IMG/VR virus record: IMGVR_UViG_3300025133_000081
Length of the DNA stretch: 64,000 nt
Source of the DNA: an uncultured virus (IMG/VR IMGVR_UViG_3300025133_000081)
Taxonomy: Duplodnaviria > Heunggongvirae > Uroviricota > Caudoviricetes > Crassvirales
Reading direction: 5' to 3' (one strand)
Part shown: one piece after another, positions 38,567-57,557 of the stretch
How positions within the stretch are numbered: the first letter of the stretch is position 1
Layout of the letters: every line of letters starts with the position of its first letter
The notes under the pieces: model-generated
What the model was told of the DNA's origin: nothing
The model's input: only the letters and a program-made list of their open reading frames with translations
Databases searched by the model: none
Program-made: the position numbers and the translations under genes

Positions 38567-38755
38567 ATGATCATGATAACATTCTTTATAATAATAGTAG
38601 TACTTGCTCTTTATCTTTTAAGAGAAGAATATCGTATATATAATAATATTGATATATTCAACAGAGATGTAACTTTTAAAAGAGTAATAATAGCTGCAAC
38701 AGGATTTATATCAATAATATTTCTTGCAATCATGTGTATAATATATTTACCATGA
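38567..38755 (+). CDS. Small two-TM membrane protein
   Basis: Two hydrophobic segments. Confidence 0.55.
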   Translation: MIMITFFIIIVVLALYLLREEYRIYNNIDIFNRDVTFKRVIIAATGFISIIFLAIMCIIYLP

Positions 38756-38991
38756 TATTTATCAACAAAGTATCTCATGAGACAAATTATCTGGCATCAC
38801 ATGCTGATAACTATAGTAAAGTACAAGAACGGTTCAGACAAAAGAACCCACATACTTTTAGTGTAGTACATGGTTCAACTCTACGTCCTAGATTTCCTTC
38901 ATCAAAAATAGATTGGTTATTAGAAAGGTCACTCCATAATTTAATTGCAAAGGTCATACCATTCAATAATATTAAATTATTCAAAAGATGA
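38734..38991 (+). CDS. KR-tail small protein (ends NIKLFKR)
   Basis: Paralogue of 38988; probable start MIFINK at 38752. Confidence 0.6.
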   Translation: MYNIFTMIFINKVSHETNYLASHADNYSKVQERFRQKNPHTFSVVHGSTLRPRFPSSKIDWLLERSLHNLIAKVIPFNNIKLFKR

Positions 38992-39227
38992 TATTTATTA
39001 GAAAATATAGTAAGATAACTCATATCTTATATTGTGTAAGTGATAATTATACACGTATAATACATGACGAAGATTATATAAAGGTAAGAAAACCTACTAC
39101 TATATATCTAGTAAAAGGAAAATTACCTTTGACCCCTAGTAAAATTCAATGGGCTCATGATAGAAAACATCTAGCATTTGCAGCACCTTTCATTATGTTT
39201 AGAAATATAAGTGTATTTAAAAAATGA
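38988..39227 (+). CDS. KR-tail-like small protein (ends NISVFKK)
   Basis: MIFI...DNY...PSKI.W...R shared with 38734. Confidence 0.6.
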   Translation: MIFIRKYSKITHILYCVSDNYTRIIHDEDYIKVRKPTTIYLVKGKLPLTPSKIQWAHDRKHLAFAAPFIMFRNISVFKK

Positions 39228-39412
39228 GATGGATAAATATTGAAGATGATATACCTAAAAGATCAGGTAAATATATTGTCAAGACAAGAACTTCATTTAA
39301 TAATATCAATGCGTTTCTAGCAGGATATAAATATAATGAAGAAAAACAATCAGGTACATTTGATGTATCCAATCAAAGAATTACTCATTGGCTTAAATAT
39401 CCACCTCTATGA
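39224..39412 (+). CDS. DUF551-like small protein
   Basis: M.WI..ED..P...G.Y.V...ITHW..YP. Confidence 0.6.
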   Translation: MRWINIEDDIPKRSGKYIVKTRTSFNNINAFLAGYKYNEEKQSGTFDVSNQRITHWLKYPPL

Positions 39413-39687
39413 AATATACTACATATAATGTAAATCTTCTTCGAATACCTATAGGAGATGTTCTCTGTTCTTTAACAGGAGGACGTTTACTACATTTTAC
39501 AGGTGAATTTGGGAAAGAATTTCCTTTTAAAACTACATTTAAAAATGCTTCAACTTATCATATATTAAAGAAATCAAATGAAGATTCAGTAGTATATAAT
39601 TATGTACGATGGGCACAACAGAGAAGCTTAGTAGATCTAAGAGGTAAGACACTTTCTATTAAAAATCTTTCAACTTATCCAAGGTAA
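39409..39687 (+). CDS. KR-tail-like small protein (ends NLSTYPR)
   Basis: VRWAQQRSL resembles IDWLLERSL of 38734. Confidence 0.55.
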   Translation: MKYTTYNVNLLRIPIGDVLCSLTGGRLLHFTGEFGKEFPFKTTFKNASTYHILKKSNEDSVVYNYVRWAQQRSLVDLRGKTLSIKNLSTYPR

Positions 39688-39947
39688 TGCAACAGTATAT
39701 ACATATAATGCCATTTAGTCTTCTTGAATTAAAAAGACTTAAATCTGCTAGATTGATACAGGCATTTGGTAGTACACAACATCCTTTAGGATTTGAAATA
39801 ATGTATATTAAACGAATGTGTGTAGTAAAACATGATGATTCTATTTATGCATATCATAAGATTCATGCTTATGCTTCCATACAGAGTACTACTGTTTCAT
39901 TTGATCTAAAGATAACAATTAGACATTTAAGAATATATAAAAGATAA
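39687..39947 (+). CDS. KR-tail small protein (ends HLRIYKR)
   Basis: TAATG coupling; shared tail. Confidence 0.55.
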   Translation: MQQYIHIMPFSLLELKRLKSARLIQAFGSTQHPLGFEIMYIKRMCVVKHDDSIYAYHKIHAYASIQSTTVSFDLKITIRHLRIYKR

Positions 39948-40231
39948 AGAACTCCATTGAGACTATAGAAAAAATCCATACTATAAATAGTACTCCATAT
40001 ACAGCTCTCTGATAAAGGTTTGAAGACCTGAATTATAACTGTATAGCTATGAAAAAGTAATTTCACATTCAAATTAATTAAAACCCTTAAGGTTGTGAAC
40101 GGATTCTATTCTTGGGAGAGAATAGTTAAGTGATAAGATCTCCGACTTAGAGAGACTCACGATGGATTCTTCTTTTAACTTACACTCGGGTCGCAACTTA
40201 GCTGCGTAAGCAGTTTAAACAACCAGAGTTT

Positions 40232-40291
40232 AGAGAGTGGCACTATTTTTTGTGTCATAGGTTTTGTTGGTTAAGTGCCACTCTCTTTTTT
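40232..40291 (+). terminator. Terminator-like hairpin with an unusually large loop
   Basis: Perfect 13-bp stem agagagtggcact/agtgccactctct, 29-nt loop, T run. Confidence 0.65.
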
Positions 40292-40336
40292 CCTTTGAAA
40301 CAATAACACCACTATATTAACACAAAAATCATTAAA

Positions 40337-40600
40337 ATGAAAGGTTTTGCATTTAAAATCAAAAAAGCGGTCACAAACAGGCCCAAAGATTATTCAGGTC
40401 TTCCAGGCCTGCTTCATAACATGGGTGTCTCTCAAATTATTAATAGTAATTTGCAATTACATTCTTTTGTTTGGAAAGAATCCCCAAGATCTATTTCAGC
40501 AACCTTCTTCTTTCAAACAGAAGAGAGTAGAGCAAGAATCAATGGATTTAAAGAACTTATTCGAGAAACAATAGAGTTTCATAAGAATATTCATAACTGA
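40337..40600 (+). CDS. Hypothetical protein
   Basis: FVWKESP motif shared with 46308 (FNWKESP). Confidence 0.55.
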   Translation: MKGFAFKIKKAVTNRPKDYSGLPGLLHNMGVSQIINSNLQLHSFVWKESPRSISATFFFQTEESRARINGFKELIRETIEFHKNIHN

Positions 40601-40608
40601 AAAAGTTT

Positions 40609-40702
40609 TATACTGTCTGATTACAGAACTTGCCAAAGTTTAGTCCAACAGGACATCCGTAGCCTCATGCCGTAAGGAGAGGATTAAAGTGTAGTAAGTA
40701 TA
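40609..40702 (+). ncRNA. Multi-hairpin ncRNA candidate
   Basis: tatact/agtata closes tctg-atta-caga, aactt-gcca-aagtt, gtcc-aaca-ggac and cctc..cc-gtaa-gg..gagg. Confidence 0.5.
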
Positions 40703-40731
40703 GAACGACAAACAATCTAAAATTAAACAAA

Positions 40732-41202
40732 ATGAATTGGTATTTAATATTTTATTTATTCGCATTAGCATCTAAGATCTCATTTACATTTAAAACTCTA
40801 GCAATAATATTTTCATTGATTGCAGGATTATGTTTTTTAATATGGATAATATCAGGTTTGGATGAAGATAGTTCAGGAGTTCCTGTTGTTAGAAAGATGT
40901 TCTGGATATTTGCTCCTTTGGCCTTTTTTGCTTGGAGTGTATGGGCATTTATACCTGACAGAAATGACATGCTATTGATAATAGCAGGTGGTTCTGTAGG
41001 AGAGTTCATAGCAGGTGATGAGAATGCTAAAGAGATTCCACATGATGTAACAAGATTTCTTAGAAAAGAGATACTTGAAGCTACTATGGAATCAGGTAAT
41101 GAAGCATTGAAAGATGCTATTGGTATTGAATCAGAAGCAGATAAACTGAAGAAACTATCAAAAGAAGAACTTATTAAGTTACTTGAAAAACCAGACCCAT
41201 GA
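40732..41202 (+). CDS. Membrane protein
   Basis: Two to three TM segments then FIP.R..M..I.AGG motif. Confidence 0.65.
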   Translation: MNWYLIFYLFALASKISFTFKTLAIIFSLIAGLCFLIWIISGLDEDSSGVPVVRKMFWIFAPLAFFAWSVWAFIPDRNDMLLIIAGGSVGEFIAGDENAKEIPHDVTRFLRKEILEATMESGNEALKDAIGIESEADKLKKLSKEELIKLLEKPDP

Positions 41203-41804
41203 AAAGTTCTAAAGGACAGTTATTTTGGAATGAGGTATTACAGGATAAACATTTTCATGCATTCTTTGAAAAATATCCAAATGTATCTGAACATTCCATT
41301 CTGGAACGATTTAAAGAAGGACTGGTAGGAATTACAATTAATAACTCCTATTCAGACGCCTCTTGGGATGAATTTATCATTCTATGTAAAACTTCTTTTA
41401 AAAATGCTGATTCATACCCACCTAAGAAAAAACAGGGTTATACTCATTTTTGGGCAAGACGAAATACTGAACAATATTATTCTGCAGGTAAAGGTAAAGA
41501 AGGTGCACATAATGTACATGATTGGATAACTTTTAACACATTCAAAAAGTTATTAAAACTAGAAAAAACAGAAATCACTAAAAATAAAGAAAATGAAGTA
41601 CACGAAAAGACTGAAGAACAAGGAACAACAAGATGCAAAGGTAATCGATCGGATCGGAAAAAGATCCAAATTGCAAGCGCAAGCAGACCTCGTGGAAGTA
41701 GAATCACAGATCGAAGAAAAAGAAGCAGAGCTCGAAGGTCTTCGATTAGCGGAGAAAGATTATTCTCTTACGAGAGTTGCGGAATGTATGACCTCCATCA
41801 CTGA
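41199..41804 (+). CDS. Hypothetical protein
   Basis: 201 aa; C-terminal third overlaps 41593. Confidence 0.5.
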   Translation: MKSSKGQLFWNEVLQDKHFHAFFEKYPNVSEHSILERFKEGLVGITINNSYSDASWDEFIILCKTSFKNADSYPPKKKQGYTHFWARRNTEQYYSAGKGKEGAHNVHDWITFNTFKKLLKLEKTEITKNKENEVHEKTEEQGTTRCKGNRSDRKKIQIASASRPRGSRITDRRKRSRARRSSISGERLFSYESCGMYDLHH

Positions 41805-41865
41805 TCTTGTAACGATCTTTAAAGCTATGGAAGGAGAATTCAAATCAGAGTTTATAGATAAATAG
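41593..41865 (+). CDS. Coiled-coil protein
   Basis: Heptad-rich; similar in character to 47846. Confidence 0.6.
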   Translation: MKYTKRLKNKEQQDAKVIDRIGKRSKLQAQADLVEVESQIEEKEAELEGLRLAEKDYSLTRVAECMTSITDLVTIFKAMEGEFKSEFIDK

Positions 41866-41887
41866 TAGCAGGGCTATTGACAACAGA

Positions 41888-41925
41888 TAGGAGAATGTGG
41901 TGTAAAAACCCTTCTCCTATTTATT
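41888..41925 (+). terminator. Terminator-like hairpin
   Basis: ataggagaa / ttctcctat followed by T-rich sequence. Confidence 0.5.
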
Positions 41926-41947
41926 TCATCACACTAAAAAAAATATT

Positions 41948-42115
41948 ATGACACCACCTACAATAACCACTAAAGTAATGGCAGATATGAATGGAGACTT
42001 TTATGTCAGAGTTTATGTCAATGAAGTATTATGTTTTAGATCAATGTCTTTTAAAATACAAAAGAGAGCTGAAGAATATGCTCAAAATTTTGAAAATGCA
42101 TTAAAACCTAAATAA
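41948..42115 (+). CDS. 55-aa hypothetical protein (not in ORF track)
   Basis: MTPPTITTKVMADMNGDFYVRVYVNEVLCFRSMSFKIQKRAEEYAQNFENALKPK; stop 1 nt before the next ATG. Confidence 0.55.
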   Translation: MTPPTITTKVMADMNGDFYVRVYVNEVLCFRSMSFKIQKRAEEYAQNFENALKPK

Positions 42116-42116
42116 A

Positions 42117-42491
42117 ATGAAAAGCAACACAGTAATTGAATTTACCCAACAGAACATAAGTGACGCGTATAATATTGGTGCATACATCATTCGTGATGAT
42201 GTAAACATTGAAGAACGTGTACAATATGCATGTACTTGGGTCAAGAAGATAGTCTATCAACTGACAATAGGTACAGATAAATACGGTCTTTGCTCAGCGT
42301 TAACTGATGGTTGGTGCTATTTTATTGGTTCTAAACAAGAATTGATAGATAAACTTAATAACTATGAGAATGGTAAGGATAAGGATGGTAACGCCAAGTT
42401 TATCAAGTGGAGATTTATGACTGAAGATGAGTTATTATACCTTATTCAAAATCGTACAAATCAAGAACAACTTGTTCGCAATCCTACCTAA
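42117..42491 (+). CDS. Hypothetical protein
   Basis: 124-aa ORF in operon. Confidence 0.6.
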   Translation: MKSNTVIEFTQQNISDAYNIGAYIIRDDVNIEERVQYACTWVKKIVYQLTIGTDKYGLCSALTDGWCYFIGSKQELIDKLNNYENGKDKDGNAKFIKWRFMTEDELLYLIQNRTNQEQLVRNPT

Positions 42492-42493
42492 TC

Positions 42494-43153
42494 ATGAAAC
42501 AGAGAGCAAAAACACATCTGTTACCTACGGATAGACAAACTTCAATTGTAATTAACAATTCAATTGGGGATAAACAGTTACAGTTTAGACCTGACTTAAT
42601 AGGTAGTTCCAAAATGGTAAGATCTGCATTGACCTTTTATAACCTCTACATCACAACTGATGAAGAGCCTAAAACTGATGATTGGGTTATTGAAACAGCA
42701 AATGGCAACGTAGTTGTACAATTTGATGAGATGTCTCTCAATCAACGTAGCATGGGATGCAGAAAGATCATCGCAACAACTGATCCTGAGTTAGTTATAA
42801 ATATCAGTAGACCTTTAGGTGTAGTTCAAGAGTTACCCCAACCTTCACAATCATTCATAGAGCATTACTGTAAAGTAGATGGTCTTGATGAGGTTGATGT
42901 GGAGTATGAGAGTAATATTAATAGAGGAGAAAAGTATTCTAAAGACAGTAAACTACAAACGGGTGATGTGATTTGTAATCCTATTTATATTCCCAAACTA
43001 GACTCCAACAACTGCATCATCACTCATTCTATCAAGGACAGTTATACTCGTGAAGAAGTAATACACATCATGGGACAGTTGTTCGACCAATTAAGTGCAA
43101 ACAGAGTATTTACTCAAGGAGCATTTGATGAATACGTAGAAGAGTTATTATAA
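42494..43153 (+). CDS. Conserved Bacteroidota-phage hypothetical protein
   Basis: LYITTDEE.K.DDW, C.KIIATTD, LPQPSQSFIE, KDSYTREEV motifs. Confidence 0.65.
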   Translation: MKQRAKTHLLPTDRQTSIVINNSIGDKQLQFRPDLIGSSKMVRSALTFYNLYITTDEEPKTDDWVIETANGNVVVQFDEMSLNQRSMGCRKIIATTDPELVINISRPLGVVQELPQPSQSFIEHYCKVDGLDEVDVEYESNINRGEKYSKDSKLQTGDVICNPIYIPKLDSNNCIITHSIKDSYTREEVIHIMGQLFDQLSANRVFTQGAFDEYVEELL

Positions 43154-43188
43154 ACCGCATAAAAATCAGAAAACATGCAACAACCTGT

Positions 43189-43610
43189 TTCAAGCAAGCA
43201 GTATGATGTGACCTGCGAGAGCGGTGAAGCACGAGATTACAGCTCTACCTAAGAGCGTTGTTTGTTTGAATGTGTCAAGAGTTATTAGACAGCGAGGCAT
43301 TGAGTTCGCGTGACGCACTGATTGAGACATCCAGTATAGGGTAACTGGCAGGTATAACTTATTGAGAGAGTAGTGGTGGGTGATACATCACTTTAGAAAA
43401 GTAAGAGTCCTGACAGAAATGCTTAGGATGCCATCAGCAATAAATGCCTTTGTAAAGAAGGAGTTGAATAGTTGACATGCTGCTTTTATCTCTCATACTT
43501 ATTACTCCCTTCCAATTGCAGGTATAGGCCACGCTTGTTTTGTAGGACATTGTCCACGGCAAGAGAGTCGGACGAATGCGAAAGCTTCAGGGTGCAACCT
43601 TGGGGGAGTA
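43189..43610 (+). ncRNA. Cluster of structured ncRNA candidates
   Basis: GC-richer gene-free stretch with closing helices 43189-43270, 43363-43495 and 43503-43610, plus internal GNRA hairpins. Confidence 0.55.
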
Positions 43611-43635
43611 TATTTTAATCGATAAAACAAAAATA

Positions 43636-43980
43636 ATGAGTGAAATAGGTAATCAATTATGTCATGATATGATCTTTAAGGGATATAAACCCACTAAAGA
43701 AGAACATGAACTGATAATTAAAGAAGTTCAAGATGAATTCTATGTGGTAGATCCTACTGATATAGAATCAGAATTAGAAGAAAAACAATATGATAAGGAC
43801 GGTGTTCTTATTGCATGGCATGGTAGAACATCTTATAAAAGAGATGTACCTAATGATCATGAACGAGATGTATTTGGTAATACTACTAATTACTATCGTA
43901 AAAAAACTATTAAAAAGAAATCAAAAACAATCTATCCAGTAACTAATCAGGTCTGGGTCAAACCTTCAAAATTTAAATAA
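43636..43980 (+). CDS. Hypothetical protein
   Basis: Start reassigned to MSEIGNQ (A-rich leader); the track start lies inside a structured RNA. Confidence 0.55.
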   Translation: MSEIGNQLCHDMIFKGYKPTKEEHELIIKEVQDEFYVVDPTDIESELEEKQYDKDGVLIAWHGRTSYKRDVPNDHERDVFGNTTNYYRKKTIKKKSKTIYPVTNQVWVKPSKFK

Positions 43981-43981
43981 T

Positions 43982-44236: not shown

Positions 44237-44363
44237 ATATTGCTATTAGTTTACTAACAATTCCGCCAGAGTGCCTGATACGTTAAAGTCAACTAATATT
44301 ACCTAGCAATAAAAAACTTTACGATAGGTTGAAGTAAAGGTTATAACCCTATCCTTTTTAATT

Positions 44364-44501
44364 ATGAAAAAAAGAAGAAAAAAGAAAGATGGTGAATTAA
44401 TGCATCATATTCAGAAGAAAATGACTGAAAAAACTTATAAAGATAAGAAAAAATATGAGCGTAAGAAAAAACACCAAAAAAAACCAGACAAGTTTGATTA
44501 A
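44364..44501 (+). CDS. 45-aa highly basic ArfA-like peptide (not in ORF track)
   Basis: MKKRRKKKDGELMHHIQKKMTEKTYKDKKKYERKKKHQKKPDKFD; YxRKxKH motif. Confidence 0.6.
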   Translation: MKKRRKKKDGELMHHIQKKMTEKTYKDKKKYERKKKHQKKPDKFD

Positions 44502-44733
44502 TACTAAGTCAAATATACCTAATGCTAGTATTATTGAAGGAAAAATTATTATTGGCAAAAAAGAAAAAATACAATTAATATATCTAGATGTATCAAATGT
44601 TTATTTACGTACCGATAATAGTGATTTTTCTTCTAAAAGAGAGTATTATAGTATATGTATAACAGGATCTTCTACATCTTTTTATGTAAATAGTAGAATA
44701 TTATTAGCTCACCATGTAATTTTTAAAAGATGA
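44455..44733 (+). CDS. KR-tail small protein (ends HHVIFKR)
   Basis: Shared tail; true start possibly TTG near 44494. Confidence 0.55.
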   Translation: MSVRKNTKKNQTSLINTKSNIPNASIIEGKIIIGKKEKIQLIYLDVSNVYLRTDNSDFSSKREYYSICITGSSTSFYVNSRILLAHHVIFKR

Positions 44734-44993
44734 TAGCAATTGAACATGATTTTTCAGGACATAAATTAGTTGCTTTTTATATCGAAGGTGATTCCATAAA
44801 AATTGATGATAGCGATTTTCTTTTTCTAAAAAATCCAAAAACCCTTGTAATATTTTCAATGGCTGCAGGGACAATTGATGGTATTATTGAAGAATTAACA
44901 AATAGTGAAACTTTATGTTATGTACCTTATGAATTGGAAGATGCAGCTGGAACAGACATAGCAATAACCGTTTTAAAAACACATAGAAGATGA
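44730..44993 (+). CDS. KR-tail-like small protein (ends VLKTHRR)
   Basis: ATGA coupling; N-terminus resembles 44990. Confidence 0.55.
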   Translation: MIAIEHDFSGHKLVAFYIEGDSIKIDDSDFLFLKNPKTLVIFSMAAGTIDGIIEELTNSETLCYVPYELEDAAGTDIAITVLKTHRR

Positions 44994-45256
44994 TCATATT
45001 AATTCAAAGTAGGGGAAAACAAAATAATATATTAGCATATATGACTGGTTTTAAAATTTCTAAAAAAACTCCTGAACTTGATACTCATCAACTTGAAAAT
45101 GTCAGTAATATAATTCTAACAGAACATTCTTTAGGTGAAGCTTCTTTTTTAAGTGATTACTATGGAACTGAAATTATTAAAAATAAAATTCCATTTCCTA
45201 TATTTTTACCGAATTTTATACAGATAAATATAAATTCTATGGGATATAAACGATAG
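44990..45256 (+). CDS. KR-tail small protein (ends NSMGYKR)
   Basis: Tail encoded TAT AAA CGA TAG with no overlapping gene. Confidence 0.55.
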   Translation: MIILIQSRGKQNNILAYMTGFKISKKTPELDTHQLENVSNIILTEHSLGEASFLSDYYGTEIIKNKIPFPIFLPNFIQININSMGYKR

Positions 45257-45297
45257 TTTATATTTTATTACATTACAAAGACTTTGTGTGGTGGACA

Positions 45298-45358
45298 GAG
45301 TTCAGTTAGTGGTTTTACTGAACTCGTTAACTGGGGAGGAGCATTTAGTTTCTCCCCA
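45298..45358 (+). other. Two adjacent hairpins (processing site, terminator or small RNA)
   Basis: gagttcagt/actgaactc and tggggag/ctcccca. Confidence 0.45.
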
Positions 45359-45372: not shown

Positions 45373-45594
45373 ATGTTATTAGCAATATTAAAAAATCCTG
45401 AAAGATTCAAAAGCGAAAAAAATATGATTTTTCTTGCTTATGATCATAAACATATTAAATCTTATGTAAGAGTACAAAATAATTCTAATAAGATTTATAT
45501 AAATTATCCTGAAAAAAGAAAATTTCTTTGGGAAACATGTGCAACGAATTTTATCTTTGTCAATCATAGAGCTAAATTAAGTAAAAAAAGATGA
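45373..45594 (+). CDS. KR-tail small protein (ends AKLSKKR)
   Basis: Shared tail. Confidence 0.55.
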   Translation: MLLAILKNPERFKSEKNMIFLAYDHKHIKSYVRVQNNSNKIYINYPEKRKFLWETCATNFIFVNHRAKLSKKR

Positions 45595-45830
45595 ATAGAA
45601 AATTAGTAAATACTCCATTTGAACAATTAGTATTACCTTTAGGTAAAGCTACATTTAAAGGAAGAGTATATATGTATGGACTTTGTCAAGAAGAGGCACG
45701 TTCTCTTTTATATGATGGGAAAAATATTGAAGATCTATTGATAGTTCTAAATTGGCCTTGGAAAAGAGAAGACGATGAAGCTGAGAAAATGTTCATGTAT
45801 ACTACTAATATTATAAAAACAAGAAGATGA
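45591..45830 (+). CDS. KR-tail-like small protein (ends NIIKTRR)
   Basis: ATGA coupling; shared tail. Confidence 0.55.
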   Translation: MNRKLVNTPFEQLVLPLGKATFKGRVYMYGLCQEEARSLLYDGKNIEDLLIVLNWPWKREDDEAEKMFMYTTNIIKTRR

Positions 45831-46066
45831 GTACATACATGACCAAACCTAAAAAATTCACTGAAGGAAGTATATTTGAATTTCATTGGTTTTTATATAA
45901 ACGGACATCATCATCTTCTTTATATTGTTTTGGTGTAAAAACAATTGTTATACATGCTTTATTAACTAGTCCATTTATATCCTACACTTTACCTTTATTA
46001 GATAGTATAAGTGCTTCACAGAAACATATAAATAGCTTTAAAAATTTAAAAAGTCATAAAAGATGA
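45827..46066 (+). CDS. KR-tail small protein (ends NLKSHKR)
   Basis: ATGA coupling; shared tail. Confidence 0.55.
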   Translation: MSTYMTKPKKFTEGSIFEFHWFLYKRTSSSSLYCFGVKTIVIHALLTSPFISYTLPLLDSISASQKHINSFKNLKSHKR

Positions 46067-46317
46067 GAGAATATAAATTATTACTTAATACTCCTCTTAC
46101 ATCAGATCCTTTATATCAAGATCAGTATAGAACCTGTGTTGAAAAAGGAATAGAAGAGTTAAAGCTCTCTAACTTGATCGTAGAGTTCCTTTGGGGACCA
46201 TATAAAGAGGAAGGACATGATATCTATTTATATTGTAGACTTAACCTTACAGCTGAAGAACTTATTCAAATAGGAGTTAAATTAGGAGAGTATGCAGAAC
46301 TTTATAATTGTATATAA
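46063..46317 (+). CDS. Hypothetical protein
   Basis: 84-aa ORF in operon. Confidence 0.55.
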   Translation: MREYKLLLNTPLTSDPLYQDQYRTCVEKGIEELKLSNLIVEFLWGPYKEEGHDIYLYCRLNLTAEELIQIGVKLGEYAELYNCI

Positions 46318-46619
46318 TGGCAAATAAACAAAATTTTCCTGTTAATTCCCTATCATTATTATTAACAGGTAAAGAATACACTGATTTTCTATCAAATGTT
46401 GCTTATTCTAGTAGATCTGAAGCAGATATTCAAATTCATTTAATGCCTAAACAACATATTAGGAGTTCTCCTCTTATAAGCTGTCTATTTAATTGGAAAG
46501 AATCTCCACAAGGAGACCGATACTGGTCAGATATGTATAATGCAGTAGCATATATAGAAGATACTGTAATACATCGTGATCTTAGCGGATTAACAAATGC
46601 AAAAATTTATAAAAGATGA
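46308..46619 (+). CDS. KR-tail small protein (ends NAKIYKR) with F.W..SP.G..YW motif
   Basis: FNWKESPQGDRYW plus shared tail. Confidence 0.6.
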   Translation: MYIMANKQNFPVNSLSLLLTGKEYTDFLSNVAYSSRSEADIQIHLMPKQHIRSSPLISCLFNWKESPQGDRYWSDMYNAVAYIEDTVIHRDLSGLTNAKIYKR

Positions 46620-46828
46620 TAATTTTACTTATAATCAGTAGTATATATGGCATATCTGTATTGTACAATAAGATATGGTTACATAAGGCTTATAGTAATG
46701 ATGGTATATATCGTTTAAACTGGCCTACATCACAAGATAAATATGTTTATTATCTTCCTGTATATAATACTTTACTTACAATAGGATTTATATTCAGAGG
46801 AAGTCCACTTAAACAAAAACCAAAATAA
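46616..46828 (+). CDS. Small membrane protein
   Basis: Hydrophobic N-terminus; LPVYNTL motif. Confidence 0.55.
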   Translation: MIILLIISSIYGISVLYNKIWLHKAYSNDGIYRLNWPTSQDKYVYYLPVYNTLLTIGFIFRGSPLKQKPK

Positions 46829-48260: not shown

Positions 48261-48692
48261 ATGAAGAAGAAAAGAATTTATGTTGGAATATACGATAACG
48301 ATAGTATAAGTGAAGTAATTTTCCAAGAAAGTCTTCCTCCTGCCAGCTGTAATACTATTATGGAGATCACTGATGTTAAGATCATTGATGGAAATCTTAA
48401 TATTATAGGATATCCATTCCAGACAGAGTATTTACAGATGGAAAATATTTTATCAGAATACTGTAAGGATAATAATATCAATGAAGAGGAGTTCAGAAAG
48501 ATGAATAAAAAGAAAATCTCTTCTTTTACATCATTTTCATTGAAGAAATTCTGGTTTATTAAAGAGGATTCTGCATCTGGTTTTGTATATGTTAAAAAAT
48601 TAGATACTGCTACTCATAAGATCTATAGTAATTTTAGAATCCAAGACAGGACAAGTACTAAAATTATGTCAGATGGAAAGAGATTCGCGTAA
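48261..48692 (+). CDS. Hypothetical protein
   Basis: 143-aa ORF. Confidence 0.55.
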   Translation: MKKKRIYVGIYDNDSISEVIFQESLPPASCNTIMEITDVKIIDGNLNIIGYPFQTEYLQMENILSEYCKDNNINEEEFRKMNKKKISSFTSFSLKKFWFIKEDSASGFVYVKKLDTATHKIYSNFRIQDRTSTKIMSDGKRFA

Positions 48693-48948
48693 AGCTATTT
48701 ATATACCAAAACCTTCACAGAACAATCTTCCTTCACCTATGTTTGAATACCTTTATGATAAAAAGAAAGATCATTGGTATAATATATATGAGTTGGATTG
48801 TTCTTCTATATATAATGATGAACCATGGTTAATGCCTGGAACTTTTTTAACATTTTCTACTGAAGAAATATTTCAAGAATACGAAGAAAGTGATTCAGGT
48901 GTATATAAATTTACTGAAATTAGAAACATTACAAAACTAAAAAGATGA
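48673..48948 (+). CDS. KR-tail small protein (ends NITKLKR)
   Basis: Shared tail. Confidence 0.55.
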   Translation: MERDSRKAIYIPKPSQNNLPSPMFEYLYDKKKDHWYNIYELDCSSIYNDEPWLMPGTFLTFSTEEIFQEYEESDSGVYKFTEIRNITKLKR

Positions 48949-49667
48949 TAATTGCAATAATTACCACAATATTTTTATTGATAGTAGTACCACTTATCGT
49001 ATTACATAATAAGGCCATTGATATGGCATTTACAGATATGAGTCTATTAAGACTTGTTTCTCATAACAGATTGATGTCCACTACTATATTTGGATTATTG
49101 ATCACATTGATACTTCCCCCAATAGTAAATATGTTCATTATAGGATTATTAGCTTTATTATGGCTAGTAAGAACTATTATGATCGTTAGGGCAGTACAGG
49201 AAAGATATGGAGACTGGTCTATGAATAATATGAATTCATATTCTTCTACTATGTTAACAGATGATGGTGCAGAAATTGATGGTGATGCTGTTCAAGACTA
49301 TCTTGATGGTAAAGCTGATTCTGTAAAAGAGGCTGCTAATAAAAATAAAGGAAAGAAATCAGATGAAAAATCAGATAAATATTCTGATGAAGAACATGAT
49401 CCTGAAGTAGATGACTGTACAGATGATGTAAATAAACAAAAGAATACTCAAAAGACCCAATCAGTTGAAGAGTATAAATTTGAAAAAGGACAAGTAGTTA
49501 CTATCTGTAATCTACCAGCAGGATATCCTTCAAATATGAGTGGCAGATCTGGAGAGATCAGAGCTCATATACCCAATATCCAATTAGTGAGAAAAGAACT
49601 TGACAAACAACATGGCTATATCATAGCTGGATTTGTTCATCCTGTTCCAGAAAATTGTTTAAAATAA
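48945..49667 (+). CDS. Membrane protein with acidic linker and C-terminal KOW/SH3-like domain
   Basis: N-terminal TM segments; YKFEKGQVV.I...G.SGEI...V.E.CL. Confidence 0.55.
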   Translation: MIIAIITTIFLLIVVPLIVLHNKAIDMAFTDMSLLRLVSHNRLMSTTIFGLLITLILPPIVNMFIIGLLALLWLVRTIMIVRAVQERYGDWSMNNMNSYSSTMLTDDGAEIDGDAVQDYLDGKADSVKEAANKNKGKKSDEKSDKYSDEEHDPEVDDCTDDVNKQKNTQKTQSVEEYKFEKGQVVTICNLPAGYPSNMSGRSGEIRAHIPNIQLVRKELDKQHGYIIAGFVHPVPENCLK

Positions 49668-50359: not shown

Positions 50360-50716
50360 ATGGACGTAAAACAAACGTATCACATTCATAGTGCTCCCCT
50401 AGAGGATGGTACTAGAGCTACTGTAGGAGCAGTAGTTACAAAAGATAATACTCTTAGATTCGGCATTGCCGTCTGTGCGCCTGGGGACAATTTTGTCAGA
50501 AGAACAGGAGCAGATAAATCTTTGGGTAGAGCACTTATTGGAACAGTTCCAAATAGATTAGGAGTAGTTCATAAAGCTTCTACGGAATCTGTTATCAAAG
50601 AAGTAGAAACACCACAGAATTCTAAGGAGATGTTAACATTCTTCCTTAACCATGCAAGAGATATCCTGGCTGAAAGAGGATTTCAAACAAAAAACAACCA
50701 AAAAGAGAAAGTATAA
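50360..50716 (+). CDS. Conserved phage protein
   Basis: G.A.C.P.DNF.R..G...SLGRA motif widespread in phages. Confidence 0.65.
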   Translation: MDVKQTYHIHSAPLEDGTRATVGAVVTKDNTLRFGIAVCAPGDNFVRRTGADKSLGRALIGTVPNRLGVVHKASTESVIKEVETPQNSKEMLTFFLNHARDILAERGFQTKNNQKEKV

Positions 50717-51729
50717 TGGATGATTTGAAAAAACAATTAGGATTGCTTCTACAGTCAGATGAGGCTATGGAGATCTTTAGAGAATTGATCAATGAGAACA
50801 TGTCTGAAAAAGATTATGAGAAATTGATCACTGAGGAAACTTTAAAAGGAAGTGCTACTTTATTGAAGCCAGTTATTACTGAGTTGAGAGACAAGAATAT
50901 TACGAAAGTAATTAAACTTGAAAAGAATGAGTATAAGATCGATCCATCTACTACTCATGCCAAAGTAACCAATCTTGTTACTAATCTTGGTCTATTCAAG
51001 CAAGCTATGATCGTTGGACCTACTGGTTCAGGTAAATCTACTCTTGCAGAACAATGTGCTAAGATCATGGGGCTTGATTATGCTTCTTATTCTTGTAATG
51101 AAGAAGCCTCTAAGACAGAATTGATCGGATTCAATGACCTTAGTGGTTATAATTATCCAGATTTCCTTCGTCTTTATGAAGAGGGCGGTGTAATGCTCAT
51201 TGATGAGTATGATGCCATGTCTCCTGGTATGGCATTGGTTCTTAATGCTGCATTCGATAGAAGTGGAAGACTCAGTGTTCCTACAAGAAAAGATAACCCT
51301 GCTGCCTTTAAGCACAAGGACTTTTACTGTATTCTTGCTGGTAATACTTGGGGAAATGCTTCTGTTGAATATTCTGGTAGAGATATGCAGGATAGAGCAT
51401 TCTTGGATCGTTTCAAAATGTGTCGTGTATTCATTGATTATGATGAAGAATTAGAAAGAAGTCTTACTACACCAGAATTCTCAAGACTTTTTCATAATAT
51501 GAGAAAAGAATTGGTGGATCTTGGTATAGATGATGAAGTATCTACTAGAACTATTGTAGATGCATTTTCTTTGTATCATAATGGATTTGAGTTAAAAGCT
51601 CTTGTTCAAGAAGCAATGTTACACTGGGATGATGGAGACAAAGACCAAATGATGGCTCGTATGGAAGGTTATATCTCTGATTTCAACAAAACTGCAAAAG
51701 TTAGTGCAGAAGGCGAAATTAAGGTTTAA
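50716..51729 (+). CDS. MoxR/CobS-like AAA+ ATPase
   Basis: GPTGSGKS, LIDEYD, AGNT.G, GR..QD.AFLDRF. Confidence 0.88.
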   Translation: MDDLKKQLGLLLQSDEAMEIFRELINENMSEKDYEKLITEETLKGSATLLKPVITELRDKNITKVIKLEKNEYKIDPSTTHAKVTNLVTNLGLFKQAMIVGPTGSGKSTLAEQCAKIMGLDYASYSCNEEASKTELIGFNDLSGYNYPDFLRLYEEGGVMLIDEYDAMSPGMALVLNAAFDRSGRLSVPTRKDNPAAFKHKDFYCILAGNTWGNASVEYSGRDMQDRAFLDRFKMCRVFIDYDEELERSLTTPEFSRLFHNMRKELVDLGIDDEVSTRTIVDAFSLYHNGFELKALVQEAMLHWDDGDKDQMMARMEGYISDFNKTAKVSAEGEIKV

Positions 51730-52799: not shown

Positions 52800-53737
52800 A
52801 AAAAATAGGATTATGGTTTTTCTCAATGTTATTTCCAGATCTATATCATGCATATCTAAGTAAAAAGGACAAGTCTTCTCTTCCTTTTGAAGCAGATACT
52901 AAAGATCTAGGAGATGGAATGAGATTGGGACAACATGCAATATCAAGTGAACCACATGTACTGAAAGCATTGGAAGATGTAGGTGTACTTGATAAAAATA
53001 GAGAAGAAGGAGAAGCTTTTATGGCAATTGCTTTTAATACCAGTAGTAAGAAAGAATTAGAGATCTTTCATACCAGGTTAAAAGCTATTGCAAAACATCT
53101 TTCTAATTCCAAAACGTATGAGCAAGCTTTAAAACAGGCTAAAAAGTTACTACATATAGCAGATGATCTGAAAGGAACAGCTGAATATGGAGATGCTGCT
53201 CGACAGATGGATGATGAAAAGAGAGAAAGTGTATTCAATCTTAGTGAAGAGAAGAGAACTCAGTTAGCTGAATTCTTTGCAAGTGTTATTTCTAAAGCAC
53301 CTATTCATGTAAAGAAGTCTATTGAAAGACCTTTAGGTAATGAAGACAAATTAGGATCATTGAAAAATGGTAAAAATATGTTTGAAGTACTGAATGTAGG
53401 AGATGAATATAAGACTACTCTTATTAAGACTATCATGAATTCTTATATGGATACCAATGATTGTGCAGTATGTACTAGAAATATACTGGATCTTGGTCTA
53501 TCTTATAAGGAGGCATTGATCGGTGGAATGTTGATCAGTAGCTTGAATAGATTTGTTGATACTATTGACAAATTTACTAATACAGCTAGTATTGAATTTC
53601 AAGAGATCAAACGTGAAGAGTTGAATAGTCTTCTTCGGATAGGAGCTGCATATTCTATGGGAATAGAGTTTGGAGAAAGTACTGAAGAAGATCTAGCTAT
53701 GGAGGTTAAAAGATATCTTAACGTTAAGATCATATGA
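52796..53737 (+). CDS. Hypothetical protein
   Basis: 313-aa ORF. Confidence 0.6.
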   Translation: MKKIGLWFFSMLFPDLYHAYLSKKDKSSLPFEADTKDLGDGMRLGQHAISSEPHVLKALEDVGVLDKNREEGEAFMAIAFNTSSKKELEIFHTRLKAIAKHLSNSKTYEQALKQAKKLLHIADDLKGTAEYGDAARQMDDEKRESVFNLSEEKRTQLAEFFASVISKAPIHVKKSIERPLGNEDKLGSLKNGKNMFEVLNVGDEYKTTLIKTIMNSYMDTNDCAVCTRNILDLGLSYKEALIGGMLISSLNRFVDTIDKFTNTASIEFQEIKREELNSLLRIGAAYSMGIEFGESTEEDLAMEVKRYLNVKII

Positions 53738-54249
53738 AATCTCCTCTAAAATGGTTACCTACTATGCCTATAAAACATACTACTAAAGAAAATTTAGGAG
53801 TATGTTTAGGTATAGGTAGCCAATTGGAAGCAGCAGAAGAATTCTTATTGGCATATTTAGCTCATTTAGATAATTATCTAATAAAAGGAGAGTTAAAGAT
53901 GATCAATCTTAAGAGTGTTCCGCTTGCCTTCCTTACAAATTATAGTTATTCTTCTATGAATCAGGTAATTCTTTTGAATTTTATGGTTCATAGTATAATA
54001 ATTGGAAATCCCGATGCTAGTAAAATACTTGCTATTATCGGACGTACTCCTGAGCATATTAAATTACTTAGGAGAATTATTGGCGCAGATCTTTATAATG
54101 CTTATCAAGATAATGATTTACAAGATGAGATTGTACCTGAAATAATGGCACATCTAAGTCCTTTAAAAGACTTTGTAATGACAGGATCACCGATAAGTGA
54201 AAAAGAGATCAAGCCTATTATGTATTTAATAGATGAAGCAAGTAATTAA
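53734..54249 (+). CDS. Hypothetical protein
   Basis: 171-aa ORF. Confidence 0.55.
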   Translation: MKSPLKWLPTMPIKHTTKENLGVCLGIGSQLEAAEEFLLAYLAHLDNYLIKGELKMINLKSVPLAFLTNYSYSSMNQVILLNFMVHSIIIGNPDASKILAIIGRTPEHIKLLRRIIGADLYNAYQDNDLQDEIVPEIMAHLSPLKDFVMTGSPISEKEIKPIMYLIDEASN

Positions 54250-54568
54250 AAAAGGTGACAAGGTCATCTGTACTCAGACATCCATTATTGAAATCCCTAT
54301 GTACCTATCTAAAAGAAGGATAGTAGTACATAGGGATCTTATTCTTGGAGAAGAGACTATTAAAGAGTCTATAAAAAGAGAAAAAAGCAATGGTAGAAAA
54401 CCTTCTATCTTTGTCCCTATTCTAATAGTGAATAGGGTTTATAAAGGAGCTGATAATAAACAATATATTCAGTTTGAAAATGGGAGAAAAACTCCTATCA
54501 AATATCAGTTACATCATGTGCATTCAGCACATAAATTCAGATTGGTAAATGAACCAGATCGTAAATGA
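54233..54568 (+). CDS. Hypothetical protein
   Basis: IKKGDKVIC...FRLV, SH3-like. Confidence 0.55.
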   Translation: MKQVIKKGDKVICTQTSIIEIPMYLSKRRIVVHRDLILGEETIKESIKREKSNGRKPSIFVPILIVNRVYKGADNKQYIQFENGRKTPIKYQLHHVHSAHKFRLVNEPDRK

Positions 54569-54782
54569 ATTTCATAATAGAATCACTCGAACTAAAAAAG
54601 GTTGGGTGTTGAAGAGAATTCGTAATAATTTTGCAATAGATAAATCAGAATTTAAGAAGACCTTTAAAGAAAGGAAAGAGCTTAAATTACTTAAACATCA
54701 TGCAAATATTATGATGAGAAAAGAAGATAGTGGGTATACCGCTAAAACTTATAAATGGAAAACAATTAAAATAATTGGATAA
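54549..54782 (+). CDS. Small basic hypothetical protein
   Basis: 77-aa ORF coupled to the next gene. Confidence 0.5.
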   Translation: MNQIVNEFHNRITRTKKGWVLKRIRNNFAIDKSEFKKTFKERKELKLLKHHANIMMRKEDSGYTAKTYKWKTIKIIG

Positions 54783-55288
54783 TGGCTACAAAAACAGAAA
54801 AAACTATTGCGGATAGTATTCCGTTATATGACACAAATAAAATGCAAACAATATTGAAAACTCTTTTAAATAAAGGGTGTTCAGTTATATTTAATAGTAA
54901 TACAGGATCACATGCTTTTGAATTGGGAATACCTTATCAGATCGATAAAGTAACTCTTCAATCTAATAATATCTTACAGATAACAGCTCATCAAATAAGT
55001 GCTCCTGATAGAAATGGATTGTATAATGTAAATCCCAGTGATTTTAAGATACTTGGTATTCATAGAGGAGCTTTAGATAATGCTATAGATGGATTACAAA
55101 CACAATTAACTACTTTAAAAGGTCTTCAAGAACGACTTGATGACTTAGGACTTTCTGATTCCAATTCTTACTTTGATCTACGTAAAGAGATCATTAGAAA
55201 TATCTTAGATCGATCTGAACAGGGCGATATAGATAAAGAGACCAAATTAAAATTAATTGTAGAATTAACTGATGCATTCGTAATGTGA
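54782..55288 (+). CDS. Hypothetical protein
   Basis: 168 aa; C-terminal coiled coil. Confidence 0.6.
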   Translation: MATKTEKTIADSIPLYDTNKMQTILKTLLNKGCSVIFNSNTGSHAFELGIPYQIDKVTLQSNNILQITAHQISAPDRNGLYNVNPSDFKILGIHRGALDNAIDGLQTQLTTLKGLQERLDDLGLSDSNSYFDLRKEIIRNILDRSEQGDIDKETKLKLIVELTDAFVM

Positions 55289-55292
55289 TCCA

Positions 55293-55327
55293 ATGAGAGA
55301 GGGGAAGTTGTCTCCTCTCTCATTTTA
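55293..55327 (+). terminator. Terminator hairpin
   Basis: atgagagagggga-agttg-tctcctctctcat plus T run. Confidence 0.65.
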
Positions 55328-55341
55328 CTAATATTTATACT

Positions 55342-55554
55342 ATGAGACAGATTAAAGAAAAGAATTTCACTATTATCAAGTATTCCCAACTTTCTGAAGA
55401 AGAAAAGGATGCACATACTTGGATCGATACAGAAGAAATGTACACATATGTACCTTTTACGGTACTTGACACTCAAGATGATCCATTGAGTCAGAATTTA
55501 TTGTTTGAAAATATTGTCCAATACGGAGAAACTGTACTAATATACAAAGACTGA
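55342..55554 (+). CDS. Hypothetical protein
   Basis: 70-aa ORF. Confidence 0.55.
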   Translation: MRQIKEKNFTIIKYSQLSEEEKDAHTWIDTEEMYTYVPFTVLDTQDDPLSQNLLFENIVQYGETVLIYKD

Positions 55555-55689
55555 TGTTAAAATTATTTAAAAAATTCACATTTAAACGATCTACCCTAAA
55601 GCATAGACTTCCAGCTAACTATAAATGGAAAGGTACATTAGGTAGAAATCAAACTATTTTTCGTTTAGAAGATAAAAAAAGAAAAAAAG

Positions 55690-56208
55690 ATGAAACAAAA
55701 TTTGGAAAATAGAGATGTTTTAGGTATATTTGTTAATTATCTGGGAAAAGATATCTTTGTAAACACTTATGGGATCACGATCGAACAATTTGATCTTGAT
55801 TTCATAACAGCTGCTTATTATGAGAGAGCAGAAATATTTGCTCCAGAGGGTACAATTAATGTCTCTTTAATAGAATGTAGTGTAATTCTTAAGGAATTAA
55901 GTCATATTACCAAAGAAGATATTCAAACAGTAGCTGATATACTGGAAACAGATTTTAATAATATTAAAGCAACTATAGGTTTGATCAGATTTGGTTTAGA
56001 AGAGGAAGTTCCTTTTACACTTATTAGAGAATTATCTAGACTTGGTTATGCTGTTCCTTATTTTGGAAAATCTTTATTCAGTCTTGGAATAGCCATTAAA
56101 GAAGAAGACATAAAAAATATAATTGAAAAAGCAGATAAAAAAGATGAAGATATTATCAAAAGAGTGCAGTCCGCAGAGACAGAAACGGCTAATCCTGACC
56201 CCTGGTAA
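55690..56208 (+). CDS. Hypothetical protein
   Basis: ILK.LS.IT.ED...L.RLGYAVP motif. Confidence 0.6.
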   Translation: MKQNLENRDVLGIFVNYLGKDIFVNTYGITIEQFDLDFITAAYYERAEIFAPEGTINVSLIECSVILKELSHITKEDIQTVADILETDFNNIKATIGLIRFGLEEEVPFTLIRELSRLGYAVPYFGKSLFSLGIAIKEEDIKNIIEKADKKDEDIIKRVQSAETETANPDPW

Positions 56209-56368
56209 AAGACTTCCAAAAAATTGGGAGCTAACTATAATGACTGCTAATGCAATACATTTAGTAGATTCCATGTGTACTATCTATAGAATACCAACAA
56301 GTAATCGAAAAAAAGCATATTTTTGTGGAATGATAGTTATAAATGATATAAATTTATATAAACGTTAA
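56123..56368 (+). CDS. KR-tail small protein (ends DINLYKR)
   Basis: Tail TAT AAA CGT TAA; true start probably downstream of the track start. Confidence 0.5.
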   Translation: MKKQIKKMKILSKECSPQRQKRLILTPGKRLPKNWELTIMTANAIHLVDSMCTIYRIPTSNRKKAYFCGMIVINDINLYKR

Positions 56369-56370
56369 AT

Positions 56371-56604
56371 ATGGAAGTTTTACAAAGAACAGTTCAGTTA
56401 CTTTTACCACAGTATGAAGACGATAAAAATATACCTAATTATACTTCTATCATACATGAAAATTATCTATATATGGATACATATAATGAAGGTTCAGATA
56501 GTTATTTTATACATGATAATAAATCTTTTTTTGCCTCTCAAGAAAAAAATAAAGTATATGAAATTAAGGTAAAAAGAGAAAAATGTAAACGATATAAAAG
56601 ATAA
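56371..56604 (+). CDS. KR-tail small protein (LYMDTY; ends KCKRYKR)
   Basis: Array paralogue. Confidence 0.6.
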   Translation: MEVLQRTVQLLLPQYEDDKNIPNYTSIIHENYLYMDTYNEGSDSYFIHDNKSFFASQEKNKVYEIKVKREKCKRYKR

Positions 56605-56605
56605 A

Positions 56606-56770
56606 ATGGCAATAAGATCGAATTCTCCAATTACTATAGATGATACAAATAATTATCAGACCATAACTCCAACTAGAATTTATTGTGATACTTATGGGTG
56701 TACAGAAAGTTATAAGATAGGTAATGAATCATGTTTAATGATTATTATAAAAAAAATATATAAAAGATAA
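56606..56770 (+). CDS. KR-tail small protein, 54 aa (not in ORF track)
   Basis: MAIRSNSPITIDDTNNYQTITPTRIYCDTYGCTESYKIGNESCLMIIIKKIYKR. Confidence 0.65.
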   Translation: MAIRSNSPITIDDTNNYQTITPTRIYCDTYGCTESYKIGNESCLMIIIKKIYKR

Positions 56771-56771
56771 A

Positions 56772-56951
56772 ATGGCAGTAATTACATCACATAAAATAGC
56801 TTTGGATTTTTTAGATGAAAAATATAATCAAAGTTATAATTTATTCACTTTAAAAAAAATTTATTTTGATACTATGCATGGTCCTGAAAGATATAAACTT
56901 AAAGATAAATTCTCTATGGATGTATTAAATAAAAAAATATATAAGAGATGA
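56772..56951 (+). CDS. KR-tail small protein, 59 aa (not in ORF track)
   Basis: MAVITSHKIALDFLDEKYNQSYNLFTLKKIYFDTMHGPERYKLKDKFSMDVLNKKIYKR. Confidence 0.65.
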   Translation: MAVITSHKIALDFLDEKYNQSYNLFTLKKIYFDTMHGPERYKLKDKFSMDVLNKKIYKR

Positions 56952-57148
56952 AACGACAACACCCAAGATATATAACAATACGTGACGGTGCTACTGCTAT
57001 GGTCACTAGTACAAAACTATTCTTTGATACTTATAATAAAAATGAAAATGCTTTTTTAATATACATGCATACTAAAAAAGATCTTGCAGGATGTAATGCA
57101 ATATCTAATATAGATATATATGAAAACCTTTATAGATATAAAAGATGA
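56948..57148 (+). CDS. KR-tail small protein (LFFDTY; ends NLYRYKR)
   Basis: Array paralogue. Confidence 0.6.
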   Translation: MKRQHPRYITIRDGATAMVTSTKLFFDTYNKNENAFLIYMHTKKDLAGCNAISNIDIYENLYRYKR

Positions 57149-57339
57149 TAAATGAAAAAGGATTATACTTAAAAACAGCATTAAAATGTCCAGATGTAGT
57201 AATACTTATGTTTGCTGAAGGACAGGTTTATTGTCAAGATTATTATGGGGATTATCTTCCTTTTTCAGGTGATGATTCTACACATTGGGGAATAGTTACT
57301 ATACGATATAAACATGCTCCTAGAATAGCAAAAAGATGA
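57145..57339 (+). CDS. KR-tail small protein (VYCQDYY; ends APRIAKR)
   Basis: Array member. Confidence 0.55.
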   Translation: MINEKGLYLKTALKCPDVVILMFAEGQVYCQDYYGDYLPFSGDDSTHWGIVTIRYKHAPRIAKR

Positions 57340-57557
57340 AAGAATCAATTAATTATGCATTAAAGGTCTCTTCAAAAGAGAGGAAAAAGAATCAAATAAA
57401 AAACACTTCTTTATTACAAAGAAGTATGTTAGCTGCAGATCAAATATTATATTTGGATAATTTTCATAATGAAAGATATTATATAGAAGGAGCAGATAGT
57501 ATTACTACAATACTTTATTACGTAGAATTTAATAATTTAAAAATATGTAAAAGATGA
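57336..57557 (+). CDS. KR-tail small protein (LYLDNF; ends NLKICKR)
   Basis: Array paralogue; ATGA-coupled to the polymerase. Confidence 0.6.
   Translation: MKESINYALKVSSKERKKNQIKNTSLLQRSMLAADQILYLDNFHNERYYIEGADSITTILYYVEFNNLKICKR

Follow-up and report, generated by a model that had tools for sequence, protein, structure and literature searches.

T4-type phages mark diverse internal proteins, encoded in a plastic locus, with a short common peptide, the capsid-targeting sequence, which lies at the N-terminus of late, packaged proteins and is cut by the prohead protease. Among C-terminal signals, the sorting domain of the type IX secretion system (T9SS) is folded and has some 70-100 residues, and the ssrA-like degron has non-polar last residues. 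Here, a short C-terminal tag was analyzed that is shared by 19 small plus-strand genes of an uncultured crAss-like phage (IMG/VR record IMGVR_UViG_3300025133_000081); the whole stretch analyzed, 64,000 nucleotides (nt), is called the window. Unlike the T4-type sequence, this tag is a C-terminal tail, lies on the replication and early arm of the genome, and comes with no evidence of packaging. An ssrA-like non-polar degron was rejected, since the last two residues are basic in 18/19 tags. The tag may be the coding face of a dual-coded gene-end cassette of about 25-36 nt, a reading to which we assign a probability of roughly 45%.

The second group of systems compared concerns translational coupling. 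The chaining of genes through ATGA overlaps is ordinary, and termination-reinitiation takes place at ATGA and TGATG overlaps; Huber et al. (2019, PMC6728339) describe a Shine-Dalgarno (SD) sequence inside the upstream gene for most phyla, and for Bacteroidetes they report that the SD is used neither in initiation nor in re-initiation. The tagged junctions resemble these cases in their -4/-1 overlaps or 1-2 nt gaps (17/19). They differ in that the phage lacks the SD and has T[AT]TAAAAG together with a peptide end instead, and in that the junctions described here are read from sequence alone. For Flavobacterium johnsoniae, Baez et al. (2019, PMC6847099) give A at -3, -6, -12 and -13 as positive start determinants, in line with the A-rich 'Kozak-like' contexts of Bacteroidia. 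The phage junctions share A at -3; A's are also placed at -12 to -14, with fewer than half of the junctions having A at -13. They differ in having T instead of A at -6 and an almost constant G at -1, and their context forms part of the coding sequence of the upstream gene. In a human mRNA, the C-terminal peptide of open reading frame (ORF) 1, and not just the RNA, is needed for coupling to the overlapping ORF2, according to Gould et al. (2014, PMC3923131). That case is eukaryotic and concerns an aspartate-rich repeat in a single gene.

With one exception, the 19 small genes end in [KR][KR] followed by a stop codon: KR in 15, RR in two, KK in one and PR in one. All 19 C-termini listed in an earlier note on this DNA were recovered (Table 1), together with its count of fifteen KR ends and its arrangement of three arrays plus one outlier. 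The seven-residue tag proposed there is real, and the motif proved to be longer, about 12 residues: hydrophobic residues at -12, -11 and -9, N at -7, a hydrophobic residue at -6, K at -5, a hydrophobic residue at -4, Y/F/H at -3, and K-R. Counted over the 19 genes, N is found at -7 in 11, a hydrophobic residue at -6 in 11 and at -4 in 10, K at -5 in eight, Y/F/H at -3 in 14, and K or R at -2 in 18; the last residue is R in 18 and K in one. Hydrophobic residues at -9 and at -11 occur in 13/19 genes each, against a background of 31% (p 8e-4). Binomial p values across the tag positions range from 8e-4 to 2e-9, and those for -1, -2, -3 and -7 from 1e-8 to 2e-9. KR ends were found on 15/58 plus-strand genes, whereas the composition of the bodies predicts about 0.2 (binomial p 4e-24).

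The stop codons of the tagged genes are TGA (13), TAA (5) and TAG (1), and the Arg codons are AGA (15), CGA, CGT and AGG (one each). The spelling is CGA TAG at the gene ending at 45256 and AGA TAA at the gene ending at 39947; a third tag has CGT, and AGG is found at the TAATG junction. The tag is retained, as had been claimed, with CGA and CGT codons and with all three stops, and it is also kept on two genes that have no downstream start. The genes are small, as described before; three of the starts are probably later ATGs, which changes the lengths from 54-103 to about 42-100 residues. The probable starts are 38752 instead of GTG 38734 and 46317 instead of TTG 46308, and for the ORF at 56123, whose first 86 nt lie within gene 55690-56208, a start at 56240 or 56144 is more likely.

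An artefact of AT-rich composition and ATGA overlaps was considered, as Lys is common as the last residue window-wide (16/95 genes) and A-rich codons are favored near starts. KR ends were counted across genomes with one crude ATG-only gene caller throughout. By this count, KR ends close 14/58 genes on the plus-strand arm of this phage (GC 32%). None were found among the 37 genes of its structural arm (GC 40%), the 91 genes of Flavobacterium phage Fpv1 (GC 27%), the 62 genes of the early arm of Cellulophaga phage phi14:2 (GC 29%) and the 144 genes in the loci of six relatives (GC 36-42%). Similarly, Arg is the last residue at 12/15 ATGA-type ends within the arrays and at 1/22 elsewhere (Fisher p 2.8e-6). 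The control genomes and the comparison of ATGA-type ends have already refuted the artefact. Neither AT content nor ATGA overlaps thus account for the enrichment, and the tag is a real feature that is specific to the arrays. ATGA coupling by itself is insufficient, as the earlier note had argued, because untagged array genes are also coupled, Arg is so rare at such ends elsewhere, two tags have no following start, and Arg codons other than AGA are used.

The nonamer AAAAGATGA is present in 12 copies with 1.9 expected, and 0/100 shuffles gave as many as 12; 9/11 plus-strand copies are tagged gene ends. A scan of IMG/VR for two AAAAGATGA sites 180-210 nt apart gave at least 119 loci; among the matches listed, two have both sites at ORF junctions, and neither of these has N-h-x-x-Y-K-R (h, hydrophobic). 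One unrelated IMG/VR phage contig (L034, 2001-2392, minus strand) has two adjacent small genes with AAAAGATGA overlaps, which end in NRKR and FKKR but have no other part of the motif. A scan with the strict 24-nt consensus gave 66 matches, none at an ORF end, and has little power because this pattern matches no tag in the window either.

The genome has two arms. On the minus strand at 4-35 kb, PHROGs identified the structural genes, namely those for the major head protein, portal, large terminase and tail proteins, and the plus strand at 36-64 kb carries replication and accessory genes, including an AAA_5 (MoxR-type) ATPase, PolA, helicases and a Sak4-like protein. The major capsid protein (MCP) is 43-44% identical to those of Steigviridae-type crAss-like phages, and all MCP relatives for which a host is given infect Bacteroidota. 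The PolA sequence shows 30-38% identity to polymerases of crAss-like phages and of one cyanophage. The environmental relatives and the sequencing runs that contain the phage show a marine origin. GC content is 27-29% in the array islands and 34-43% in the rest of the window. An SD-like core (GGAG, GAGG or AGGA at -20 to -4) precedes just 2/82 starts, and the start contexts are A-rich. This is the pattern of Bacteroidia described in PMC6847099 and PMC6728339. Recoding of stop codons was set aside, as the structural genes are intact under table 11.

The geometry of the junctions argues for a function at the RNA level. The 19 tag-to-next-start junctions comprise 13 ATGA overlaps, one TAATG, three gaps of 1-2 nt and two cases with no start within 100 nt (the genes ending at 39947 and 45256), so that 17/19 tags lie within 2 nt of a following ATG. 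Where the overlap is ATGA, nt -5 to -3 relative to the following ATG come from the Lys codon at -2, and nt -14 to -12 from that at -5. Among the 17 starts preceded by a tag, the frequency of A is 88-94% at -2, -3 and -5 (88% at -3), 76% at -12, 47% at -13 and 76% at -14; in the other 62 starts A has its maximum at -12 (65%) and -13 (63%). The alternation of Y and F at residue -3 is the T[AT]T of T[AT]TAAAAG. Pairwise identity is 0.73 over nt -9 to -1, 0.59 over -21 to -1, 0.42 over -36 to -10 and 0.32 over +3 to +23, with 0.31 at random. The conservation is one-sided, strictly upstream of the stop.

The junction 8-mer TTTAAAAG is also found directly 5' of the major capsid ATG, in non-coding DNA, and relatives have CCAT[AT]TAAAAAC directly before the capsid ATG. 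In the window and its relatives, T[AT]TAAAA within -12 to -1 of starts occurs at about ten times its overall density, while being rare in absolute numbers. The only body with homologues outside this phage (46317-46619) bears the tag as an extra tail, which also speaks for the RNA level. The earlier note had underrated this nucleic-acid side, namely the 17/19 tags near an ATG, the placement of A and the capsid 8-mer. As a separate observation, CCAT[AT]TAAAA before the capsid ATG is kept across relatives with 65-66% identical MCP and recurs before another gene in the PolA relatives; its possible roles include those of late promoter, leader element and start context.

In the dual-coded cassette, a tagged gene would end in N-h-K-h-[Y/F/H]-K-R, its stop overlapping or abutting the next start. 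In the mRNA, this sequence would place T[AT]TAAAAG directly 5' of the next AUG and an A-run at -12 to -14, which together may form a strong SD-independent context for re-initiation after termination. This context would be kept at every junction while the gene bodies turn over, and the encoded peptide would have adapted so that proteins tolerate it at their C-terminus and perhaps benefit from it. We propose that the context raises re-initiation and that this is the cause of its conservation.

Several observations weigh against the dual-coded cassette. ATGA-type ends outside the arrays lack the tag, as do the AT-rich crAss-like Bacteroidota phages Fpv1 and phi14:2, and untagged array genes are coupled without the motif (ATGA twice, TAATG and TGATG). 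The reported determinant A at -6 is not seen after tags, where A makes up 29% and T 53%. The best-conserved base is instead G at -1, within the Arg codon (18/19, compared with just 16% at other starts), and G at -1 is not among the reported start determinants. The genes ending at 39947 and 45256 still end in YKR though no start follows, and strong hairpins lie 3' of them in ORF-free DNA. Codon choice within the tag equals background usage, and the hydrophobic residues at -9 and -11 are retained through varied codons. In the last three codons, the difference at replacement sites (pN) is 0.25 against 0.73 in an unaligned control, and that at silent sites (pS) is 0.44 against 0.55. The low pN indicates that conservation is mostly at replacement sites. 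Thus the comparison of synonymous and non-synonymous sites that the earlier note had called for gives conserved replacement sites, with a contrast that is not clean, because an A-rich start context also imposes A-rich K, N and R codons.

These points bear on a different reading, a general form of the earlier note's proposal, in which the last 7-12 residues would be a peptide address tag: a short linear motif with a free Arg carboxy-terminus, recognized by a putative common phage or host partner, while the bodies give specificity. We regard it as possible but rather unlikely. Arg or Lys ends all 19 proteins, and the counts at -2, -3 and -7 given above fit a peptide signal. CGA, CGT and AGG keep Arg where the AAAAG string is broken, the two operon-terminal genes keep YKR, replacement sites are far more conserved than silent ones, and the tag is carried by at least two demonstrably unrelated bodies. 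The context of the tag is predicted to be helical in one body and beta in the other, in two models that are both weak. Tag identity is 0.590 within arrays and 0.586 between arrays, and this equality points to selection toward one consensus rather than to recent copying. On the other side, no homologue outside this phage shows retention of the tag, the A-rich start context would impose the same K, N and R codons, every variant Arg codon retains G, and 17/19 tags abut a start. Seven of the 19 tags belong to one paralogous array, which brings the number of independent cases below 19.

In its broadest form, a portable N-h-K-h-Y-K-R address peptide would mark about ten unrelated kinds of early protein for one reader, and the overlap with starts would be secondary; this version we also hold to be unlikely. 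Candidate readers include a hub protein and a chaperone or AAA+ machine. The reader might also be the terminating ribosome, in which case the nascent tail would promote re-initiation in a host without SD pairing. The RNA-level and peptide-level readings are not mutually exclusive, and the letters of the genome do not by themselves separate them. The suggestion that the tag mimics a T9SS export signal fails: Pfam gave no match to a sorting domain of that type in the 23 small proteins, and the shared part has at most 12 residues. The N-termini of the tagged proteins, inspected by eye, have no hydrophobic signal-like segments.

The relatedness of the gene bodies was compared after removing the last eight residues. 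Related bodies were limited to the sets 38752/38988, 56371/56606/56772/56948 and 40337/46317. Genes 38752 and 38988 are paralogues (E 1.4e-6; z 17), and six of the seven array-3 genes form one family with the motif h-Y-x-D-T-Y. Profile-profile comparison (hhalign) of the tail-less bodies gave a probability below 1% between the three arrays. The body of 46317-46619 consists of a single unit of an unnamed but widespread repeat, aFxWxxTPQGxxYW, for which 25 homologues were found outside this phage (E down to 7e-11). The tail is found on 0/25 of these homologues, a dibasic end on 2/25, and in the alignment the tail appears as an extra 20-odd residues after the repeat unit. The earlier claim that the tag sits on different body families is therefore borne out by the between-array probability and by the separate repeat family of 46317-46619, and so is the claim that F.WKESP occurs both with the tag (46317-46619) and without it (40337-40600). 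The repeat itself reaches up to 13 units per protein and is not covered by a Pfam family; of its two copies in the phage, the single-unit copy at 46317-46619 is intact and that at 40337-40600 is degenerate.

These comparisons make it doubtful that all tagged genes belong to one fast-evolving superfamily, which would have arisen by tandem duplication of one small gene, with a C-terminal strand or hairpin alone still recognizable. The common size class and tandem arrays, the detectable sub-families 38752/38988 and 56371/56606/56772/56948, and the hydrophobic periodicity at -12, -11, -9, -6 and -4, which resembles a structural element, agree with this history. The profile-profile probabilities between arrays argue against it, as do the mean body similarity (z 0.36 for tagged genes, 0.06-0.11 for controls) and the membership of 46317-46619 in a different, widespread and tail-less repeat family. 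Structure prediction was too weak to place the tail: AlphaFold gave a predicted local distance difference test (pLDDT) score of 53.5 for the array-3 family and 65.1 for the protein of gene 46317. The ESM Atlas model of the protein of gene 38752 had a pLDDT of 0.48 and no usable feature match.

A word-seeded search of 5.8 billion clustered proteins found no homologue of the other small genes outside this phage. No other phage contributed a protein to the results of searches with the protein of gene 38988, an array-3 profile and a profile of 12 sequences; a profile search had seven matches, of which four were the window's own and the other three share lengths with window proteins and come from the same contig set. 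None of the 23 small proteins was above the Pfam cutoff, and PHROGs gave nothing usable for the small genes. In relatives whose PolA is 62-64% identical, the entire block at 55.3-57.5 kb, which includes array 3, is missing and about 440 nt of ORF-poor DNA is found instead. Array 3 ends exactly on the ATGATA start of PolA, which its last gene overlaps by ATGA. This ATGATA is ancestral, and the preceding AAAAG is missing in the relatives. The arrays are lineage-specific accessory insertions, judging from the missing outside homologues, the missing block in PolA relatives and an AAAAG that is not ancestral; they form AT-rich, lineage-specific runs of orphan early or accessory genes.

The missing block also bears on a DNA-level explanation, in which the consensus TATAAAAGATRA would be a recombination joint where gene cassettes are gained, lost or swapped. 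The whole 2.2-kb block before PolA is absent from those relatives, and its right edge is a tag junction fused to PolA's own ATG. We nevertheless consider such a joint very unlikely. Twelve bases are short for homologous exchange, and the silent sites of the tag are near saturation, which means that it was not copied recently. No diverged strain with a different cassette content was found in IMG/VR, in metagenomes or in four sequencing runs: the IMG/VR copies of the phage are 99.99-100% identical, and contigs from the four metagenome runs, taken at 80% likeness, all represented the identical phage and offered no informative variants. A few joints in run contigs were not trusted, as their sides were shorter than 30 nt. 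A PolA search of IMG/VR and metagenomes returned the same phage or 62-72% identical relatives without the array. The neighboring 326-residue protein had no relative in these searches, and the neighboring 219-residue protein matched the same phage alone (99.99% identity). The sequencing-run search placed the phage in five marine DNA runs and in no RNA run. No near-identical DNA was found among GenBank phages.

Table 1. Positions of the tagged arrays, their untagged members and further features of the window.
Feature	Position	Strand	Details
Major capsid gene start context, CCCATTTAAAAG+ATG	26707..26718	-	Non-coding; last eight bases equal the 8-mer of tagged junction 44733
Untagged gene directly 5' of array 1	38567-38755	+	
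Array 1	38752..39947	+	Tagged 38752-38991 NIKLFKR, 38988-39227 NISVFKK, 39409-39687 NLSTYPR, 39687-39947 HLRIYKR
Untagged gene inside array 1	39224-39412	+	
Terminator-like hairpin, then U run	40232..40291	+	-23.2 kcal/mol, z -3.4
Array 2a	44455..45256	+	Tagged 44455-44733 HHVIFKR, 44730-44993 VLKTHRR, 44990-45256 NSMGYKR
Two strong hairpins	45298..45357	+	-33.6 kcal/mol, z -4.4; between gene end 45256 and start 45373
Array 2b	45373..46619	+	Tagged 45373-45594 AKLSKKR, 45591-45830 NIIKTRR, 45827-46066 NLKSHKR, 46317-46619 NAKIYKR
Untagged gene inside array 2b	46063-46317	+	
Outlier tagged gene	48673..48948	+	NITKLKR; ATGA overlap onto likely membrane-protein gene 48945-49667
AAA_5 ATPase	50716-51729		Plus-strand arm
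AAAAGATGA as start context of gene 55690-56208	55685..55693	+	No tagged gene end there
Array 3	56123..57557	+	Seven tagged genes ending at 56368, 56604, 56770, 56951, 57148, 57339, 57557; C-termini DINLYKR, KCKRYKR, IKKIYKR, NKKIYKR, NLYRYKR, APRIAKR, NLKICKR

Several neighbors of the arrays were recorded. The tagged gene 39687-39947 is the final gene of its unit, and the stretch 39948-40336 on its 3' side has no plus-strand ORF of 20 or more residues. Genes 46616-46828, 48945-49667 and 38567-38755 adjoin tagged genes and have strongly hydrophobic N-termini; their small proteins are likely membrane proteins, and two of the three genes start at a tag junction with ATGATA. For the untagged gene 39224-39412, DUF551 scored 20.2 bits (E 0.0011), below the cutoff of 22. 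A block of about 2.2 kb with ten small genes (55289-57553) lies between a terminator-like hairpin at 55297-55321 and PolA. PolA's own C-terminus (59428-59452) reads NITKFWKK with an ATGA-type end, and its relatives have NITEYWQK or NITQYWEK; this end is a conserved part of the polymerase, and its resemblance to the tag (N-I-T-x-aromatic-x-x-K) is probably coincidental.

Just 5' of array 1, ARAGORN predicted a tRNA-Ile (anticodon GAT) at 38016-38092 on the plus strand. An Rfam scan of the whole window at gathering thresholds gave no match, and this tRNA-Ile was also not listed. The stretch 43154-43575 is 422 nt long, free of ORFs and, at 43% GC, richer in GC than its flanks; it showed no folding signal (z 0.14) and no Rfam match. 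A scan for sigma-70-type promoters gave no more sites than shuffled sequences. For phi14:2, a preprint (10.1101/2020.03.07.982082) reports that its early transcripts have no upstream motif in common.

The novel element is that a Bacteroidota phage has a conserved, SD-less junction, T[AT]TAAAAG-ATG-A, which is translated as [YF]-K-R. No such tail was encountered in the literature on crAss-like promoters, Bacteroidia start contexts and termination-reinitiation, which is not a claim of its absence from print. The most conserved feature of the tag, the Arg with its G at -1, is unexplained by known start determinants. How Bacteroidia re-initiate at overlapping genes without an SD is an open question, and PMC6728339 notes only that the SD is not used. 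The 17 natural junctions built on one short consensus, which also stands before the capsid gene, make a compact candidate element. The locus also advises caution, as shared termini should not be taken as protein homology or as effector signals. If the tag acts at the peptide level, many early phage proteins that are not related to each other would carry one address tag, which is rarely seen. Whichever level applies, the locus helps to explain the frequent similarity of gene ends among unrelated phage mini-genes.

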